A DNA stretch of 52,428 nucleotides. Origin: an uncultured Candidatus Saccharibacteria bacterium (GTDB taxonomy: Bacteria > Patescibacteriota > Minisyncoccia > UBA11713 > 2-01-FULL-45-33). The stretch covers positions 1 through 52,428 of the forward strand of contig CAYXFX010000004.1 in the NCBI GenBank assembly GCA_964464405.1. Reading direction: 5' to 3'. Shown one piece after another: positions 17,526-29,053 of the stretch (positions within the stretch are counted from its first letter, which is position 1; every line of letters starts with the position of its first letter). The notes under the pieces are model-generated. The model was not told where the DNA came from. It did not search any database and was given only the letters and a program-made list of their open reading frames with translations. A program made the position numbers and the translations under genes.

Positions 17526-17573
17526 GAGTTATCCACAAATAGATTTTGCTAATAGATTTACGAGCAGTATAAT
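17526..17573 (+). promoter_or_regulatory. DnaA-box-like 9-mer upstream of a putative promoter
   Basis: GAG-TTATCCACA at 17526-17537, TTGCTA-N16-TATAAT at 17546-17573. Confidence 0.5.
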
Positions 17574-17919
17574 AAAGCTACAAAGCAGATGAAAAAATAT
17601 GTGTGAGAATTTAGGTTAATTTGATAGGCCAGTTTTGGTCTATTTATTGGCTCATGACGATTGGTTCTAAATTATCTTTTCTGGAAGCAATCGTCAGAAG
17701 CTAAATTGAAAAGATTTACTTCTGAGACGGAAAGAACATTGACAAATAAATAAACGCACATTTAAGTTTGAAGTTTCCAATAGAAACTTAGGCTGGGTCG
17801 ATTATGAGAACAGCTTTGGTTTCAAGTCGAAAATTTATTATTAGTTTATAAACGGCGTGAGTGTGTTTTTTGTCGAAAAGCATCAAATGCCGTAAATTAA
17901 TTTATTAAAGATAATAATC

Positions 17920-20900
17920 ATGAGTAAAAAGAAATTGACTTCGGTCATGCTGAATGTAAGCACGGCTGTGTTGATCTCCGGTGCTGTTTCATTAGTACCG
18001 ATGGTCGCAAGCGCAGCGCTTACAGAGGCACAGATACAGTCGATTTTGTCGCTCCTTACATCGTTTGGCGCGGATACATCAACTATTAACAATGTTAATA
18101 GTAGTCTCCGTGGACTACCGACATCAGGAACACCGACACCATCGGCTGGAGCATGTACGTTCACCAGAAATCTCACAGTGGGATCGAGAGGTGATGACGT
18201 AACATGCTTGCAATCGTATTTAGGAGTTACGCCTACAACCGGTTACTTTGGTCCGTTGACTAAAGCAGCCGTTGCAAACTGGCAAGCAGCTAACGGGGTA
18301 GCACCGGCAGTCGGATATTTCGGAGCTCTTTCAAGAGCAAAATATTCGGCGTTGGTAGCATCAATTCCTCCTGGCACAACGCCACCAGGAACAACTCCTC
18401 CTTCAACTTTGCCAACAGCGGGAACATTGAAAGTTGAATCGGGAGTACAGCCAGCAGCAACATTATTCCCAATTAATTCAACACGCGTTCCTTTCACGGT
18501 AGTGAAATTTACAGCTCCTTCTAGCGGAGATGTAACTGTAAGTTCATTAGTTGTTGAAAGAACAGGTCTTGCTAATGACACAGCGTTTTCGGGAGTTGTG
18601 CTTTTGGATGAAAGCGGAACACAGATTGGCATTGCCAAAACTTTAAATTCGCTTCATCAAGCATCACTAACCGGCTCGTTTGTTGTTAAAGCCGGGCAAA
18701 CCAGAACCATGTCTTTGGCTGGTAACGCAGAAACTTCATCCAACAGCTTGGCGGGACAAGTTCCTTACCTTAAGTTAGTGTCGGTTACATCAAACGCATC
18801 AGCGGTTGATATGCCGGCATCCGGCATTACCGGAACAGGCCACACTGTTAACGAATCGTTGACAATTGGTACTGTAACAATGCAAAGAGGTTCTCTTGAC
18901 CCAGGAGCAAGCGCGACAAAGAAAGTAGGAACAACCGACTACGCGTTTTCTTCAGTTAAAGTTACTGTAGGATCAGCTGAAAAAGTTTACTTGAAATTTA
19001 TCAAGTGGAATCAAACAGGTTCGGCTGCTTCCGGTGACTTGGCAAACCTCAAAACTTATGTAGACGGAACCGCCTACGACATGCTTTTGAGCACGGACGG
19101 CAAATACTATCTTGCAACTTTTGGAGATAACAACGGAAAAGGCATTTTGATTGACAAAGGATTTTCTAAAGAAGCCACTGTAAAAGGTGACTTGGTAGGA
19201 GGATCCGGAAGAACTGTTGACTTTGATCTAGCAAAAAGAGTTGATGTCGGTTTGGTTGGAGAAAACTATGGTTTCGGAATTACACCTCCTCAAACAGGAG
19301 CTTCAGACCCGACAGACGACTCTGCTAACTTCAGCAGCACGGAAGATCCTTGGTACGATGCCGCGCAGGTTACAATTGACACAGGTTCAATTACAGCTTC
19401 AGCGGCAGCTTCTCTTACGGCGCAAAACATTGCGGTTAACTTGGCAAACCAGCCTTTAGGAGCTTTCGACATCGAAGTAAAAGGTGAGGAAATTTCTGTT
19501 GGACGAATGATTTTCCACATCAACACAACAGGAACCGGACACCCCGGACAAATCACCAACATTACTTTGGTTGATTCAGACGGAGCGGTTGTCGCAGGCC
19601 CCGCAGATGGCTCAAGAGTAGTCGGGGGCGACGGAACAGTAACATTTACCGACACTATAAACTTTAAAGTCGGTAAAAAGACTTACACTTTGAAAGGTAA
19701 GCTTGCAACTAACTTCGTTTCAAACGACACTGTTCAGGCTTCAACGACTCCAAGCTCAAATTGGACAACAGTAACAGGGCTAACGACTTCAAACAGCATT
19801 ACTCCTTCTCCAACTTCAGCCATTACTTCAAGCGTAATGACGGTAAAAGCAGGAGCTTTGGCGGTTTCAGTTTCAAGCGTTCCTATTGCACAAACAATAA
19901 TCGCTGGCGCGCAAAACTTCTTATTTGCAAACTACATCTTGAATGCGACAGCATCCGGAGAAGATGTACGGCTTACAAACATGAGGTTGTCGCTTAACGC
20001 CGGAGGTGCAAGCGCTGCGGCAACGCACGTAACAGGATGTATTCTCTACGATGGAGCAACAGCTGTAACAAGCTCAAAAGATCCATCATCTGCGGCTTCA
20101 ACGACGGCATTTACGTTTAGCAACAACGGCTACACAGTTCCGAAAGGAACCTCAAAGACGTTGGCTTTGAAATGTAACTTATCAACATCTGCTTCAGGTC
20201 AATATCACTGGGGCCTTGACGGAACACAAGCCAATTCAACCAATTGGACAGGAGTGTCCGGCCTAACAAGCGGTCAGACAATTGCTCAAACCGTAACTGA
20301 CAACACGGGTCCAATTATGACTTCAGCATCAGGAGGTTCACTTGCTGTTTCTATTCCCAATAATCCTCCTTATGCGATAGTGGGAGCTGGTCAAACCGGA
20401 GTTGTGCTTGCACGCATTAGATATAGTGCAACCAACGAACCGATTGACTTAAGACAAGTTGCGTTGGTAATGGGCCGCGCGGCCTCAAACACTGTGACTG
20501 ACTTGGTTGGAAGCAAAGTAACATTGTGGACGACCGAGGGAGTACAGATTGCGGAAGCGCAGTTTGACGAAAGCACCGACAGAGCTACTTCGTCTCCGAT
20601 CGCTTCAGGAGCGTTTACGATTCCTCGCGATGGTTATAAAGAATTGGTTGTAAAAGGAGATATCGCAGGCATTTCTGCATCTGGTCCGTTAACTAAATCA
20701 GGTGATTATTTGACGGTTAACTACGATGGAAATAACCGTACTGCTCCGGCAGGTAACTACGGAGTTGGAACGCAATCCAACGTAAACGGTGCTTCAGGAA
20801 TTAACGGTTCAGCGGCAGCTAACTCATCTGGAGTAAGAATAATGAGGGCTTATCCAAATGTTGCGGTAAATACTTCAGGTCTTTCTACCACAATCAATAA

Positions 20901-22904: not shown

Positions 22905-25900
22905 ATGAAGAGCATGCAAATAAAATTTTTTATAGCCGTTTCTTTATTGGTGTCGCCGATTTTTTCTTTTGCGTACGATGACAAAACAACTCATCCGGCA
23001 TTAACAGATGAGATAATAGATCTTTTTAACCTCTATTATCCAAATTCAAAATTTTCAAGCGAAGAAAAAGAGTTAATAAAAAAGGGAAGTATCGAAGAAG
23101 ATTTTGCTCCGCGATGGATGACCCATTTTTACGACCCCGTTTATAATCGGGGATTATGGGGGAATCCGTCTGCAAATGTCTGGGCACAAGATTCTGACAC
23201 TCAAGTAACTTTAACCGGATACTACAATCAAACTGGCGTATATAGCGCTTTAACACTTCGACCTTTCGAAGCTCCGAGCGACTATTCTTGGGAACGGGCA
23301 ATTTATGATTACGTTTGGGGAGACAAAAAAAGAGGCATGGAAGCTCTCGGACATGTTCTCCACTTGATTGAAGACTCTTCTGTGCCGGATCACACTCGCA
23401 ATGATGCTCATCCCCCTATTTTGGACTTTGGAAGTCCTTACGAATTTTGGACCAAACGTTTTACGCCCGAAACATTGGATGGCCTTGCCACAGAAATTTA
23501 TTTTACCGGCACTCAAATACCTACTGACTACTCGGGGCTTTATGGGTATTTTAATTCTTTGGCAATGTATTCTAACAATAACTTTTTCAGTAAAGATACT
23601 ATTTTTGACGTCGGATATCATCAACCGTTAGTTGATTTCTATGGAAATGAAATACTAAAAAATGGAAGCGTAGTTAGGTTCGGTTTTAGCGATTCCGGAC
23701 GCGTACATTTGATTCGTGTGCCATTAAATACCTCATGGAGAGCTAGTATCGGTTCCGATGACGTAGTTGAGCCAATATTATCAGATGCGGACGATAAAAT
23801 CCTCACCGATTACTGGACTCGTCTGTCCAAACAAGCTGTTTTGCATGGAGCGGGGGTTGTTAAATTGTTTTTGGAAGAGGCTGAAAAGGAAAGAAAAAGC
23901 AAAGAACTTTGGGCGAAAAATAGATCGCTGGCTGACAAATTGGCTTCTGTCTTTTCTTTTTTCGGCCCCTCGCCAGAACCGGTTTCAAACATTTCAGAAC
24001 TTTCTTCTGATGCTTTCAACTTGGAGTCCCGACCTCCAAGTAACTTAGCAACCGGGTTGCTAAGTGAAGGCGAGTTTGCCAACAGGTCTGCTTCACAAAC
24101 TTCCTCGAATGAAAGCGTTTTGAATACTCCTAACTTCGCAAGTTTATCTGCACCTGCAAATTTAATTAGTTCCGCAAATTCGAATATGAATTCGGGTTTG
24201 CCCACAAATTCTGAAACGCCGAACGGAGGAGACGGTTCGGTTCCTGCCGGTTTCGGCGGGGGAATGCCGATTCCAAACCCTATTAGTAGTACCGTCGAAA
24301 GCTTGGCGCATAGCGCAATAAGCGAATCCGATACAACAGCTCCTGGTGCGCCTGTAGTGCAAAATCCAGTGGACGGTGCAAACTTTACTGTAGCTTCAAT
24401 TAATTTTTCTGGAACCGCAGAAAATGATTCGATAATATCCAATGATTTTAATAATGCGACTACTTCTGTGGATTTACTTGGCAACTGGCTAATTAATTTA
24501 AATAATTTAAACCAGGGCACAACGACAATAAGTTTTTCTGCGCAAGACGCGGCAGGAAACAAATCTTCTTCAACACAAATTTCAATTTTTGTTGATTCCG
24601 AAATTCCCGACTTTAATTTAACAATTCAAGAATGCGAAATTTCTTTAAGCGCCGAAGATTGTGTACTGCTTTTGCCAGACATTAAAATTTCTTGGTCTTC
24701 CTCCGCTTTAGATATTGATCATTTTGAAATTATTTGCAAAAAAAACAATGTACCTTGCGAAAACTTTTTAATCGGAACTTCGACAGCTCTCTATTCTCTT
24801 TCTGAAAATTCAAGCTACATTTTTACCGGTAGGGCTTTTGATAAAAACGGAAATAAAAGTATAGAGATAAATAAATCCGTCACGTATTCTCCGCGCCCAG
24901 TTGTTATTAATGAAATTGCCTGGGCGGGAACAAAATTTCATAATTCTGATGAATGGATAGAGCTTGCAAATATAACGACTAGCGAAATTTCATTGGATGG
25001 ATGGACTCTTTTTGCAAAAAATTCAAATAAACCGTATATACCTCTTTCTGGAAAAATTCCTGCAAAAGGATATTTTCTTTTAGAAAGAACCGATGACGAA
25101 ACAGTAAGCGATATTCCTGCCGACTTAATCTATGGAAATAATGGATCAGCTTGGGCATTAAACGATTCTCCCGCGGATATTTTGGTTTTATCCCACGCAT
25201 CGACAACAATTGATGAGACCATAAGATGCAACACCAGATGGTGCGGAGGGTCAACATCCAATGAACGCCCCTCGGCTGAAAGAATAGCTCCCATGTTGCC
25301 TGGAAGTAATATGGCCAACTGGGCTACGGCGCTCGGCACTGTTAGAAATGGCAAAGACGAAAAGGGGGACCCAATAAAAGGCACACCCAAGGCAAGAAAT
25401 AGCGTCAACTATTTGATTTCTTTAGGCGACAATCTAACGGAAAATAAAATTTTAAAATCGGCAAATAGCCCCTATTTAGTTAACAATTCTTATTTAATAA
25501 TTCCAGAAGGGTTGGAGATGAGTATAGAACCAGGTGTTGTTATAAAAATTGCAAAAAATTCTACGGTGTTGGTAAGAGGAAAATTAAAATCGGAAGGGGC
25601 TCAAAATAACGAAATTGTTTTTACTTCAATAGATGACGACTCTTACGCTGGCGATATGAATGGAAACGGAACTTCCACGTCGCCCATGCCAGGCGATTGG
25701 AGAGGACTGCATTTCTCAAATACAAGTTTAGGTTCCAATGTTTCTTACACAAAATTTATTTATGGAGGAAAATGGAACGGAGGAGAATATGGATACCAAA
25801 GATCTATGGTAAGCGCTGATCACGTTTCTCTGCCGATTTCAAATTCAAATTTTGAAAAATCATTTTCTGCCGGACTTTTCTTAAATTATTCAGATTCGGT

Positions 25901-26774
25901 GGTGGAGAATAGCTCATTTTTAGAAAATAAAACAGGGATCATAATTTATCAAGGGGCTCCCTTGGTGTCAGGAAATATTTTTGAAAGTAATAATGATGGA
26001 ATAAGCCAATTAACAACGCAAAGTGTTGTTAAGGATAATGTATTTAACAATAACACGGGATATGCGGTATTTTCTGCAGATAAAATCGGAACATTTTCGG
26101 GCAACACAGGTGAGGGAAACGGAAAAAATGTAATATCTATTTATGGGAATATAGGCGTCGCAGGCTCAACAACAACTCTTGAAAAAAATGAAATTCCTTA
26201 CGGTTTGCCGGTAAATAGTTACGGACCTTTTATGTTGCCGGCGGGAGCCGGGCTTAAGATTGGGCCTGGGAGTGTTTTTAAAGCGGACAATAAAGGGCAA
26301 ATGGTTATCAACGGTACGCTTCATATAGACGGAACGGAATCTGAACGTATTCGTTTCTCTTCTTTGGCCGAAGGAGGGCCGGGGGAATGGAAGGGCCTTT
26401 TAGTAAATCCAGGAGGACTTGTTTACGGCGGATATTTTAGTTTAAAAAACGGAGGAGGAGATCCTGGATGCGAAAGCACATGCGCTGGGTTTGGAATTAA
26501 AAATGGAAGTATTGAATTATCCAACGGAGTAATCGAAAACAATCTTAGCAGAGGAATGAGAATTGAAAGTTCTTCAACAACATTAATTAACTTCGAATTT
26601 AAAAATCATGCTTCCTCCACCGCATTGCAGGCAATTAATTCAAAAATCACGCTTGACCACGTTTCATTTACAAATAATTTTCTCGCGGTTTCATCCGGCT
26701 CATCAATATTTAACGTCTACGATTTAATTTTTTCCGGAAACATAACGATATCAACGCCGCCGGATCTTTTCTAG
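22905..26774 (+). CDS. Secreted multidomain protein: Zn phospholipase C/P1-nuclease-like domain, Ig-like domain, lamin-tail domain, right-handed beta-helix
   Basis: Signal peptide; TTH, EED, HFYDP, HLIED, PDH, DAH, YE ligand pattern; VINEIAWAGT..DEWIELAN LTD motif; repeated GxxI/N-ladder beta-helix. Confidence 0.72.
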   Translation: MKSMQIKFFIAVSLLVSPIFSFAYDDKTTHPALTDEIIDLFNLYYPNSKFSSEEKELIKKGSIEEDFAPRWMTHFYDPVYNRGLWGNPSANVWAQDSDTQVTLTGYYNQTGVYSALTLRPFEAPSDYSWERAIYDYVWGDKKRGMEALGHVLHLIEDSSVPDHTRNDAHPPILDFGSPYEFWTKRFTPETLDGLATEIYFTGTQIPTDYSGLYGYFNSLAMYSNNNFFSKDTIFDVGYHQPLVDFYGNEILKNGSVVRFGFSDSGRVHLIRVPLNTSWRASIGSDDVVEPILSDADDKILTDYWTRLSKQAVLHGAGVVKLFLEEAEKERKSKELWAKNRSLADKLASVFSFFGPSPEPVSNISELSSDAFNLESRPPSNLATGLLSEGEFANRSASQTSSNESVLNTPNFASLSAPANLISSANSNMNSGLPTNSETPNGGDGSVPAGFGGGMPIPNPISSTVESLAHSAISESDTTAPGAPVVQNPVDGANFTVASINFSGTAENDSIISNDFNNATTSVDLLGNWLINLNNLNQGTTTISFSAQDAAGNKSSSTQISIFVDSEIPDFNLTIQECEISLSAEDCVLLLPDIKISWSSSALDIDHFEIICKKNNVPCENFLIGTSTALYSLSENSSYIFTGRAFDKNGNKSIEINKSVTYSPRPVVINEIAWAGTKFHNSDEWIELANITTSEISLDGWTLFAKNSNKPYIPLSGKIPAKGYFLLERTDDETVSDIPADLIYGNNGSAWALNDSPADILVLSHASTTIDETIRCNTRWCGGSTSNERPSAERIAPMLPGSNMANWATALGTVRNGKDEKGDPIKGTPKARNSVNYLISLGDNLTENKILKSANSPYLVNNSYLIIPEGLEMSIEPGVVIKIAKNSTVLVRGKLKSEGAQNNEIVFTSIDDDSYAGDMNGNGTSTSPMPGDWRGLHFSNTSLGSNVSYTKFIYGGKWNGGEYGYQRSMVSADHVSLPISNSNFEKSFSAGLFLNYSDSVVENSSFLENKTGIIIYQGAPLVSGNIFESNNDGISQLTTQSVVKDNVFNNNTGYAVFSADKIGTFSGNTGEGNGKNVISIYGNIGVAGSTTTLEKNEIPYGLPVNSYGPFMLPAGAGLKIGPGSVFKADNKGQMVINGTLHIDGTESERIRFSSLAEGGPGEWKGLLVNPGGLVYGGYFSLKNGGGDPGCESTCAGFGIKNGSIELSNGVIENNLSRGMRIESSSTTLINFEFKNHASSTALQAINSKITLDHVSFTNNFLAVSSGSSIFNVYDLIFSGNITISTPPDLF

Positions 26775-26791
26775 TCGCCCTTTTATTTTTT
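26765..26791 (+). repeat. 27-bp direct repeat, left copy
   Basis: TCTTTTCTAGTCGCCCTTTTATTTTTT, identical to 27955-27981; contains the stop codon of 22905-26774. Confidence 0.9.
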
Positions 26792-26865
26792 TTGTTTGTC
26801 ACAAATATTTTGTTAACGCATTACCTGTGCTTTACTGGCAATTTAGTAGATTTCCACATCCCCCA

Positions 26866-26894
26866 TTGATTTTTCATTATAAGAGATATATACT
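26866..26894 (+). promoter_or_regulatory. Sigma70-type promoter of the NYN cassette
   Basis: TTGATT-N17-TATACT. Confidence 0.65.
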
Positions 26895-26910
26895 GAAAAT
26901 ATTAACAGCA

Positions 26911-26945
26911 CCACCTCTGTCTTTACGGGCAGAGGTGGTTCTTTT
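26911..26945 (+). terminator. Leader hairpin / intrinsic terminator upstream of NYN-ASCH ORF
   Basis: 11-bp stem CCACCTCTGTC/GGCAGAGGTGG (one G-U), loop TTTACG, followed by TTCTTTT. Confidence 0.65.
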
Positions 26946-27848
26946 GTGTCTATTTGTGCTAAAATTCATTATAAAGTGACTAAAAAAGAAATTGTTGCAG
27001 TATATATTGATGGTAGTAATACGTACAAGAGATTAAAGGGACTGGGAATACCAGATAAGTCACTGCGGTTTGATTTATCATTTTTCGTAAAACATCTTGT
27101 TGGAGAAAGGACCTTGATATCAAAGAGATACTATATCGGCATAGTAAGGAATGTTGATAATTCCGAAAAAGCAGAAAAAATGGCAAAAAGTCAGCAAAAA
27201 TTTTTGGAAAGTCTGCGAACAGAAGGTTTTGATGTGAACCCAGGGAAGATAATGTATGACGGTGGTCGTATCAGGGAGAAGGGTGTTGATGTTAAACTTT
27301 CGGTAGACTTAGTAATAGGCGCAGTAGATAGTATATATGATACTGCGATTGTGGTCAGTTCAGATACAGACTTAATACCAGCAATAAAATATGTTCGCAA
27401 TGTTAAGGGTAAGGTGGTTGAGTATGTTGGTTTTGGAACTAATCCATCGCTTGGGATGATAAAAGAGTCATCGGTATCAAGGGTGTTCTCTCTTACTGAT
27501 TTGGCACAATTTCAAAGCAAAACTATCAAATTTAGAGATTACTTAACAGGCTTGATACTAAAAGGAGAAAAAACCACAACTTGGCGGTTATTTGATGATA
27601 AAAATTTGCTAGTAGGAGACTTATTAAATTTTCAGATATGGGAAACCGGTAAAGATTTTGCAAAAGCTAAAATTATTGAATTAAAAGAAAAAAAATTAAA
27701 AGAAATAGTAGCAAAAGACTATGATGGACACGAGAAATTAAAAGACCAGGAAAGTATGCTCAACCACTTTAGGGAGTTTTACGGAAACAAGGTTAATTTG
27801 GAAACTACGGTTAAGATAGTCAAATTCAATTTAGTTTCAAAACAATAA
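26946..27848 (+). CDS. NYN (LabA/DUF88, PIN-like) ribonuclease fused to C-terminal ASCH domain
   Basis: YIDGSN, EKGVDVKLSVDL, VSSDTDLIP acidic PIN/NYN residues; ILKGEKTTTWR ASCH motif GxKxxTxR. Start may be GTG 26976. Confidence 0.85.
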   Translation: MSICAKIHYKVTKKEIVAVYIDGSNTYKRLKGLGIPDKSLRFDLSFFVKHLVGERTLISKRYYIGIVRNVDNSEKAEKMAKSQQKFLESLRTEGFDVNPGKIMYDGGRIREKGVDVKLSVDLVIGAVDSIYDTAIVVSSDTDLIPAIKYVRNVKGKVVEYVGFGTNPSLGMIKESSVSRVFSLTDLAQFQSKTIKFRDYLTGLILKGEKTTTWRLFDDKNLLVGDLLNFQIWETGKDFAKAKIIELKEKKLKEIVAKDYDGHEKLKDQESMLNHFREFYGNKVNLETTVKIVKFNLVSKQ

Positions 27849-27954
27849 CAATGAGAGACAAACAGTCTTGTGCTTAGGGACTCTTTTTAATCCAGAGCCG
27901 TAAGTTAATTTAAGGTTATACCACCCCACTTGAAATGTCGGGAACCCTGTCTAG

Positions 27955-27981
27955 TCTTTTCTAGTCGCCCTTTTATTTTTT
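27955..27981 (+). repeat. 27-bp direct repeat, right copy
   Basis: Identical to 26765-26791. Confidence 0.9.
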
Positions 27982-27996
27982 CTTTAAATCGCTATA

Positions 27997-28908
27997 ATGA
28001 TTTCTATTATGAAAATTATTGATGCTAGAAAATATACCTATACTTTTTCAATAATTTTAGTTGCTGTGAGTTTGCTGGCGTTTACTTTGTGGGGCCTAAA
28101 GCTCGGAATCGAATTTACGGGCGGCTCTCTTTTGGAAGTCGAATTTAAAGACAACCGTCCTGAAGGAAGCGCGGTAGAAAAAAATTTAAAATCAGCGGGG
28201 CTCGAGGTAGCGACTCCTCAGTCGACCGGAGAGCGAGGAATGATTTTGCGCTTTCCAGACTTGGACGAGTCGAAGCATCAAACGGCTCTTGCGATTTTAA
28301 GAAAATTTGGAGAAGTATCCGAAAAACAATTTACCTCGATTGGCCCTTCGATTGGGGCGGAGCTTAAACGAAATTCTATTTGGGCGATTGCTACTGTAAT
28401 AATAATGATAGTACTTTACATTTCCTGGGCTTTTCGCAAAGTTTCTAGGCCTGTTTCGTCCTGGAAATATGGAATAGCGGCCCTCGTTGCTTTGATTCAT
28501 GATGTTTCAATTCCAGTCGGCTTTTTTTCTTTTCTGGGCTATTTTTATGGAATTACAATTGACACACTCTTTGTTACAGCACTTCTTACAATACTAGGTT
28601 TTTCGGTACACGATACAATTGTGGTTTTTGATCGGATTCGCGAAAACTTAAAGAAGATCGGCTCGCGGGAAAATTTCGAAAATATCGTAGAAATGAGTTT
28701 GCGCCAAACGATTGGCCGTTCGATCAATACATCTCTTACCGTTATGTTTGTGATGCTAATTTTATTTTTCTTTGGCGGAGCTACTACGCAATATTTCTCC
28801 CTCGCAATTTTGGTGGGAGTATTTTTTGGAACCTATTCATCGATTTTTATAGCAAGCTTTATTTTGGTTACTTGGCATAAATTTGCGACCCTCGAAGCGG
28901 GGGGTTGA
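27997..28908 (+). CDS. secF: Protein translocase subunit SecF
   Basis: GIEFTGGS, IGPSIGAEL, HDVSIP, LTILGFSVHDTIVVFDRIRE, RSINTS, GTYSSIFIA. Confidence 0.96.
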   Translation: MISIMKIIDARKYTYTFSIILVAVSLLAFTLWGLKLGIEFTGGSLLEVEFKDNRPEGSAVEKNLKSAGLEVATPQSTGERGMILRFPDLDESKHQTALAILRKFGEVSEKQFTSIGPSIGAELKRNSIWAIATVIIMIVLYISWAFRKVSRPVSSWKYGIAALVALIHDVSIPVGFFSFLGYFYGITIDTLFVTALLTILGFSVHDTIVVFDRIRENLKKIGSRENFENIVEMSLRQTIGRSINTSLTVMFVMLILFFFGGATTQYFSLAILVGVFFGTYSSIFIASFILVTWHKFATLEAGG

Positions 28909-29003: not shown

Positions 29004-29053
29004 GAGTTATCCACAGGGCAAAAACTTGCAATATTTTAAAAGCGAGCTAAAAT
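29004..29053 (+). promoter_or_regulatory. DnaA-box-like 9-mer upstream of putative rpoB promoter
   Basis: GAG-TTATCCACA at 29004-29015, TTGCAA-N16-TAAAAT at 29026-29053. Confidence 0.5.

Follow-up and report, generated by a model that had tools for sequence, protein, structure and literature searches.

Why should a promoter be followed almost at once by a transcription terminator, with both standing directly before the gene of a nuclease? This question is raised by a locus on contig CAYXFX010000004.1 of an uncultured Candidatus Saccharibacteria bacterium, from which a stretch of 52,428 nucleotides (nt), referred to here as the window, was analysed; all coordinates are window positions unless another locus is named, and the promoters, RNA and gene discussed lie on the + strand. 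A first-pass annotation, made from the letters alone, had described a promoter, a stem-loop with a U tract and an open reading frame (ORF) for an NYN-ASCH protein, and had suggested that the short RNA acts as an antitoxin or an attenuator of the nuclease. We propose that positions 26851–27848 form a compact two-gene cassette, in which a small RNA gene precedes the NYN-ASCH nuclease gene. The RNA is conserved in sequence and in structure wherever a distinct relative of the locus was compared, and we tentatively read it as the dedicated partner of the nuclease.

The cassette opens with a DnaA-box-like element, TTTCCACA at 26851–26858 (consensus (T/A)TATCCACAG), located 7 nt upstream of the -35 hexamer of P1, a predicted sigma-70-type promoter. 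P1 (26866–26894) has the -35 TTGATT (26866–26871), a 17-nt spacer and the -10 TATACT (26889–26894), where the first-pass annotation had placed them. A hairpin begins 15 nt downstream of the -10 box (26910–26939, ACCACCTCTGTCT-TTAC-GGGCAGAGGTGGT); it had earlier been read as an 11-base-pair (bp) stem and is counted here as 13 pairs, 11 Watson–Crick and two G-U, around a 4-nt loop. With its GC-rich stem, its short loop and the U-rich tail TCTTTTGTGT at 26940–26949, the predicted hairpin has the make-up of an intrinsic terminator. The predicted small RNA of ~46 nt (26901–26947) would thus comprise a 5' tail, (A/C)UAACAGCAC, the hairpin and a U-rich 3' end. It is followed by a second predicted promoter, P2, consisting of an extended -10 box TGcTAAAAT (26957–26965; consensus TGnTAnAAT) 10 nt upstream of the GTG start codon, and by the nuclease gene of 290 amino acids (aa) at 26976–27848. 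The likely start of this gene is GTG 26976 rather than GTG 26946, since the public gene call is 290 aa long and homologues begin at the equivalent M-x-K-K-E. A 50-aa ORF that overlaps the RNA (26827–26979) was rejected as a coding region because the indels in the alignment do not keep its reading frame.

Taken from this single sequence, the evidence for a promoter and a terminator is weak, with the exception of the fold. P1 matches nine of 12 promoter positions, a quality reached by 28 sites in 7 kb when 17.3 are expected, and terminator-like sites number 7 against 6.4 expected, a chance estimate made from the window alone. The fold of the 47-nt RNA 26901–26947 has an energy of -23.4 kcal/mol, with z = -7.0 relative to shuffles.

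The case for the RNA is comparative. The protein has more than 3000 relatives, counted as clusters, forming a large family within one lineage: among the 120 best relatives, all source names are Patescibacteria or unclassified bacteria (Paceibacterota, Parcubacteria, Giovannoni-, Kaiser- and Woesebacteria). The family has three architectures, namely NYN alone (~185 aa), NYN-ASCH (~290 aa) and NYN with another C-terminal domain (~310 aa). Fifteen distinct NYN loci with DNA, the window included, were compared, and 13 of them make up the alignment that we call A5. Conservation of the hairpin upstream of NYN homologues, which the first-pass annotation had put forward as a check, was found without exception: each of the 15 loci has a single complete P1-hairpin-P2 set on the coding strand, 5' of its NYN gene. 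The shared order is the box (T/A)TATCCACAG, a -35 TTGAYT, a 17-nt spacer, a -10 TATACT or TATAAT, about 8 variable nt, the nearly invariant (A/C)TAACAGCAC, the 13-bp hairpin, a T-rich tail (present in all 15), TGnTAnAAT, 6–10 nt and the start codon.

A profile of this region matched each NYN locus in full once and only once, on the coding strand in every case and with E = 1e-17 to 1e-23; it had no match elsewhere in ~1 Mb of DNA scanned, and none at the distant NYN genes of a phage contig and a planctomycete. The sole seeming exception, L147 from Woesebacteria, arises from a public start codon called 82 codons too early, so that the annotated gene runs through the RNA region; the motif itself lies where expected. 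Just 5' of the cassette at this locus, a tRNA-like sequence with its own terminator was read by eye (L147 2817–2890). The RNA is associated with this NYN subfamily alone and is the only conserved neighbour of the nuclease, the flanking genes being different everywhere.

Other searches gave a similar picture. When metagenomes were scanned with the pattern TAACAGCACNACCNCT, the genuine loci were L027 and L117 only, both 5' of NYN genes; the remaining matches were chance hits in coding DNA, the pattern being too short for that collection. A single-protein search of genome contigs yielded one close locus only. Among viral contigs, the pattern matched once, by chance, and the protein profile found distant NYN genes only (36% identity), which lie inside phage operons without the RNA; no phage relative of the cassette was found there. 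Plasmids likewise carry only distant NYN-domain genes (26–32% identity), found on tiny 3.5–5 kb Escherichia and Salmonella plasmids and on Leptospira plasmids.

Is the structure itself under selection? In the 15-sequence alignment, 96.9% of the cells are paired and seven of the 13 pairs have compensatory changes on both sides, and none of 500 shuffles reached either the number of covarying pairs or the covariation score. Sliding the 3' partner by 1–3 columns leaves only 40–56% of cells paired. RNAalifold, applied to 13 loci, independently predicts the same helix and nothing else, and five stem pairs never vary. Many cells of the alignment are U-G or G-U, which become mismatches if read on the - strand, and at the five loci compared the + strand folds 3–8 kcal/mol better than the - strand. 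The wobble pairs and the advantage of the + strand favour an RNA read from that strand over a double-stranded DNA palindrome.

The sequence of the RNA is conserved in a similar manner. Across 13 loci, identity is 80% in the RNA columns, as against 40% in the spacer that separates the -10 box of P1 from the start site and 30% at the four-fold synonymous sites of the NYN gene, where 29% is expected by chance. The mean amino-acid identity of the NYN domain is 71%. The difference of the RNA from the spacer and the synonymous sites indicates that the RNA sequence is itself selected. Hitch-hiking through recent horizontal transfer was rejected as the cause, because synonymous sites at chance level are saturated and indicate that the loci diverged anciently. 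The hairpin was also considered as the terminator of the upstream surface-protein gene, and this was rejected because it travels with the cassette into unrelated contexts, including those where the upstream gene lies on the opposite strand or is a tRNA having its own terminator. A ~45-nt terminated RNA linked to the NYN nuclease, as the first-pass annotation had supposed, is therefore strongly backed by conservation and covariation. It matches no described family in the searches made. With Rfam 15 at gathering thresholds, the whole window contains only two tRNAs, both elsewhere; a permissive cmscan of 26780–28000 (E up to 10) gave only matches far below the families' gathering scores, with no abiF motif (RF03085) among them. 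Full-text literature searches found no paper that links NYN to an RNA antitoxin or describes the motif.

How, then, would the two genes be transcribed? Among the invariant columns of P1 in A5 are TTG in the -35 hexamer and TA...T in the -10 box, and the T, G, T, A, A and A of TGnTAnAAT in P2 are nearly invariant. As these are the diagnostic positions of a sigma-70-type promoter and of an extended -10 box, we read both elements as promoters. P2 lies 6–10 nt from the start codon in 14 of the 15 loci and 19 nt from it in L139, and there is no Shine-Dalgarno sequence between P2 and the start. The nuclease mRNA is therefore probably leaderless or nearly so, and the ~46-nt RNA, running from P1 to the terminator, is probably a transcription unit of its own that abuts the nuclease gene; the ends of both transcripts are those that we infer from the DNA. 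A separate leaderless transcript argues against a simple leader or attenuator.

Leaderless expression seems ordinary for this organism. A Shine-Dalgarno sequence precedes only ~10 of the 42 genes in the window and several genes have -10-like boxes 6–13 nt before ATG, which suggests that leaderless mRNAs are widespread in this genome. Such boxes near start codons are common in the window; secF (27997/28009) is among the genes with a TATAAT-like box 6–13 nt 5' of the start.

The DnaA-box-like element of P1 also has counterparts in the window. The DnaA-box consensus TTATCCACA lies 7–10 nt 5' of the -35 at three promoter-like sites, namely NYN P1 (26851–26858, in degenerate form), 17529–17537 and 29007–29015, the last belonging to a promoter 5' of rpoB. 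TTATNCACA occurs six times in the window against 1.4 expected, a count reached by none of 100 shuffles. Further positions of the box are 11379, 38950 and 51349. The TTATCCACA box may have a general place near promoters in this organism. The promoter-like site at 17529–17576 is followed by ~340 nt without an ORF (17583–17919) before a 1197-aa gene at 17920; this interval, which has no Rfam match at gathering thresholds, may hold a long leader or an RNA not yet annotated.

The protein encoded behind P2 agrees with the domain assignment of the first-pass annotation, as both Pfam domains score above their cutoffs: NYN (PF01936) with 65.5 bits against 24.2 (E = 9.5e-18) and ASCH (PF04266) with 27.4 bits against 21.2 (E = 5.8e-6). 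The acidic NYN residues D12, D105, D111, D130 and D132 are invariant in 18 homologues, and the predicted nuclease therefore looks active. A PDB sequence search of the protein returned nothing, and its structural relatives came from fold searches. The AlphaFold2 model (pLDDT 87) matches LabA-like 2QIP in Foldseek with E = 5.6e-10 and TM 0.81, and the MARF1 NYN domain at about E = 2e-5; matches of the C-terminal domain, in keeping with a PUA-like fold, are the ac4C amidohydrolase YqfB (9KYF), PH0355 and the Zymomonas ASCH protein ZmASCH. In PADLOC, only NYN models match, namely the HEC-09 profile (E = 2e-16) and an NYN model, and HEC-09 covers the NYN domain only of this protein. HEC-09 differs in having an N-terminal helix-turn-helix-like domain and in lying inside Hma loci, and no small RNA has been reported with it. 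The sequence, the fold and the invariant acidic residues agree with LabA-like NYN proteins (PF01936, COG1432, 2QIP) and MARF1, none of which has a reported RNA partner gene. No function has been established for the bacterial LabA-like NYN proteins; NYN (COG1432) genes have been tied to the processing of tRNA and rRNA through their gene neighbourhoods (PMC5499597).

Another aspect of the locus is its apparent mobility. The cassette is self-contained, with blastn homology to other NYN loci limited to 26853–27833. A perfect 27-nt direct repeat, TCTTTTCTAGTCGCCCTTTTATTTTTT, brackets the NYN unit with a spacing of 1190 nt: the left copy (26765–26791) contains the stop codon of the upstream gene, the right copy (27955–27981) lies directly 5' of the secF promoter and start, and these are the only two copies in 52 kb, where none is expected. 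The upstream gene (22905–26774) encodes 1289 aa with an N-terminal hydrophobic segment, a lamin-tail domain and below-cutoff bacterial Ig-like matches, and its product is probably a large surface protein. In total, four of the 15 loci are bracketed by direct repeats of the local target sequence, 21–97 nt in length. The other three are an exact 21-nt repeat comprising the first codons of the downstream gene (L162, 2590–2610/3622–3642), a repeat of ~62 nt with 92% identity at the 3' end of RmuC (L153, 2463–2525/3580–3642) and a 97-nt repeat with 93% identity covering the 5' end and upstream region of a neighbouring gene (L009, 3733–3829/4862–4958). L153 carries two alternative versions of the RmuC-to-terminator region in tandem, with the cassette at the joint, and a further repeat at 2815–2850/4393–4428.

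From these repeats, the cassette is read as an inserted and mobile unit, as toxin-antitoxin modules often are. It encodes no recombinase. The repeats do not show the fixed length of a transposon's target duplication, being 21, 27, ~62 and 97 nt, and the non-homologous flanks inside them vary in length; repeats of such length and variability do not suit a classical transposase, and insertion by Campbell-like recombination or by repair of widely staggered breaks is possible. A search for an empty site through the identical SecF protein found only GCA_016176325.1, the same organism at 99.94% identity, so that insertion is deduced from the repeats and not from comparison. Between the cassette and its repeats, 26792–26852 (61 nt) and 27849–27954 (106 nt) have no relatives among the compared loci and may have been carried along from an earlier location.

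Which known systems does this arrangement resemble? In type III toxin-antitoxin modules, an RNA gene reportedly stands before a nuclease gene with a terminator that sets the ratio of the two products, the RNA is said to inhibit the toxin by binding it, and the modules are described as mobile and self-contained. The antitoxins of ToxIN, CptIN and TenpIN are tandem repeats of 34–36 nt that are cut by the toxin, which has the ToxN/AbiQ fold, and these systems have a single promoter. The cassette is similar in that a Rho-independent terminator, with its 13-bp GC-rich stem and U tract, separates the RNA and the nuclease gene in 15 loci. It differs in its protein, which has an NYN fold and is not ToxN, AbiQ, CptN or TenpN, to judge from the Pfam and PADLOC matches. 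It also differs in that there is no tandem repeat or repeat array 5' of the NYN gene in the window, an absence that the first-pass annotation had pointed out and that repeat searches upheld, with a single hairpin in all 15 loci. As to a single promoter with read-through into the toxin gene, the conserved extended -10 box suggests that the cassette may instead have a second promoter.

The closest tested precedent is AbiF_Cd/RCd22 from the Clostridioides difficile prophage phi027, which gives the analogy to RNA-terminator-toxin loci drawn in the first-pass annotation a real basis (PMC12373285). There, a sigma-A-type promoter is followed by a short structured RNA (the abiF motif, RF03085), a Rho-independent terminator and a toxic effector gene; RCd22 is far more abundant than the effector mRNA and neutralises AbiF by direct binding, also in trans (PMC12373285). 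The shared layout is RNA, terminator and effector without a long repeat array. RCd22 is ~100–130 nt long, with two abiF motifs and a separate terminator (PMC12373285), whereas the single 46-nt hairpin described here is itself the terminator and the abiF motif has no match to 26780–28000. The abiF gene has a ribosome-binding site and no promoter of its own, being made by read-through (PMC12373285), in contrast to the conserved second promoter and leaderless start predicted here. The proteins also differ, with NYN and ASCH domains in one case and Abi_2/AbiD/F, related to Cas13, in the other. What would be new, in our view, is the RNA, the nuclease family and the promoter layout; an RNA gene placed before a nuclease gene with a terminator between them is known.

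Our preferred explanation, held tentatively and at somewhat less than an even chance, is that the RNA is a dedicated partner or inhibitor of the nuclease, of a type III-like or AbiF/RCd22-like kind. P1 would produce the ~46-nt hairpin RNA, ending at its own intrinsic terminator, and P2, as a weak extended -10 promoter, would produce the leaderless mRNA for an NYN (PIN-like) nuclease fused to ASCH. The RNA most probably would bind the NYN domain and keep the nuclease inactive. A second effect of the terminator would be to protect the nuclease gene from transcription that starts at P1 or arrives from upstream genes, which would keep nuclease transcription low and let the RNA outnumber the enzyme. 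We infer leaderless translation, RNA-protein binding, inhibition and toxicity by reasoning from layout and precedent. A broader claim is doubtful: that the hairpin RNA and the NYN protein form a previously unrecognised RNA-protein toxin-antitoxin or immunity module specific to Patescibacteria, having a repeat-less single-RNA antitoxin with its own promoter, a nuclease made from a leaderless mRNA, and a selfish, recombinase-less cassette that would leave target duplications of 21–97 bp.

Several points weigh against an inhibitory partner. The toxicity of the NYN protein is an assumption within this explanation, and HEC-09, the only tested NYN entry of the defence catalogue, gave no phage protection (bioRxiv 10.1101/2024.01.29.577857). 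The neighbours in the window are housekeeping genes (secF, rpoB) and not a defence island. The NYN domain is unusually well conserved, which also fits a housekeeping enzyme. Beyond a terminator hairpin and a 10-nt tail the RNA contains little, and it has neither the repeats nor the pseudoknots of known type III antitoxins; conservation of the tail could come in part from pairing with the U tract or from a DNA operator at the P1 start site.

These points lead to the alternatives. If P1 were the sole functional promoter, transcription would mostly end at the hairpin, the nuclease would be made by read-through and the short RNA would be a by-product or act in cis only, which is close to the attenuator of the first-pass annotation. 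The order of promoter, terminator and gene fits known read-through systems (abiF behind RCd22, toxN behind toxI), no -35 can be recognised for the predicted P2, and translation of a read-through mRNA would still be possible because many genes here have no Shine-Dalgarno sequence. A cis-acting leader nevertheless leaves unexplained why TGnTAnAAT keeps its fixed distance from the start codon in 14 of 15 loci and why the 5' tail and stem are conserved well beyond the needs of a terminator. It also lacks a conserved alternative structure able to switch termination, as RNAalifold found no antiterminator on 13 loci and Rfam gave no match for a riboswitch or attenuator. With the conserved P2 lying between terminator and start, the RNA is probably not a leader of the nuclease mRNA, and we consider this account unlikely. 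The overlap of the two signals suggests a different role for the same DNA: the 3' arm of the terminator and the U tract occupy the would-be -35 and spacer of P2, so that polymerase at one promoter would hinder the other, and the element might only insulate the nuclease gene by blocking or occluding transcription into it, its RNA product being functionless. Neither the nearly invariant 10-nt tail nor the five stem pairs that never vary would be required for such interference, and a terminator alone, without P1, would suffice, which makes a pure insulator quite improbable.

A further possibility is that the RNA, instead of inhibiting a toxin, serves as a cofactor, guide or natural substrate of an NYN RNase that processes cellular RNA in Patescibacteria. 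The identities of 71% in the protein and 80% in the RNA despite saturated synonymous sites, the neighbourhood links of COG1432 to tRNA and rRNA processing (PMC5499597) and the very large size of the family within one lineage would all suit such a housekeeping complex. It is rather unlikely all the same: the gene neighbourhood is not conserved, an essential gene would seldom show recent insertions between perfect or near-perfect repeats, a variable guide is incompatible with a 5' tail that is invariant, and toxin-antitoxin, restriction-modification or Abi-type genes are often found next to the cassette. By far the least probable is that the inverted repeat acts at the DNA level, as a recombination or mobility site or a protein-binding palindrome. 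Some cis site must exist in a mobile cassette without a recognisable recombinase; the hairpin, however, lies ~120 nt inside the cassette rather than at its end, has wobble pairs that are valid on one strand only and stands between a conserved promoter and a U tract. An integron attC site in particular was rejected, given the perfect stem, the position behind a promoter and 5' of a gene, the absence of an integrase, and the lack of attC-like extrahelical bases or conserved R/L boxes.

The locus is of wider significance because Patescibacteria constitute a large share of bacterial diversity and are mostly uncultured and ultra-small, with gene regulation and RNA biology that are almost unknown. 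The predicted RNA would be a widespread, sequence-conserved small RNA gene in this group, and its promoter, terminator and leaderless signals may be used to calibrate annotation. The long duplications of variable length on either side of the cassette suggest that genes move in these reduced genomes by a route so far uncharacterised. For bacterial LabA-like NYN proteins, a dedicated RNA partner would offer a concrete way into their function, and should the RNA prove to be an antitoxin, the known range of RNA-antitoxin systems would grow by a further nuclease fold and by a minimal, repeat-less RNA made of a single hairpin.

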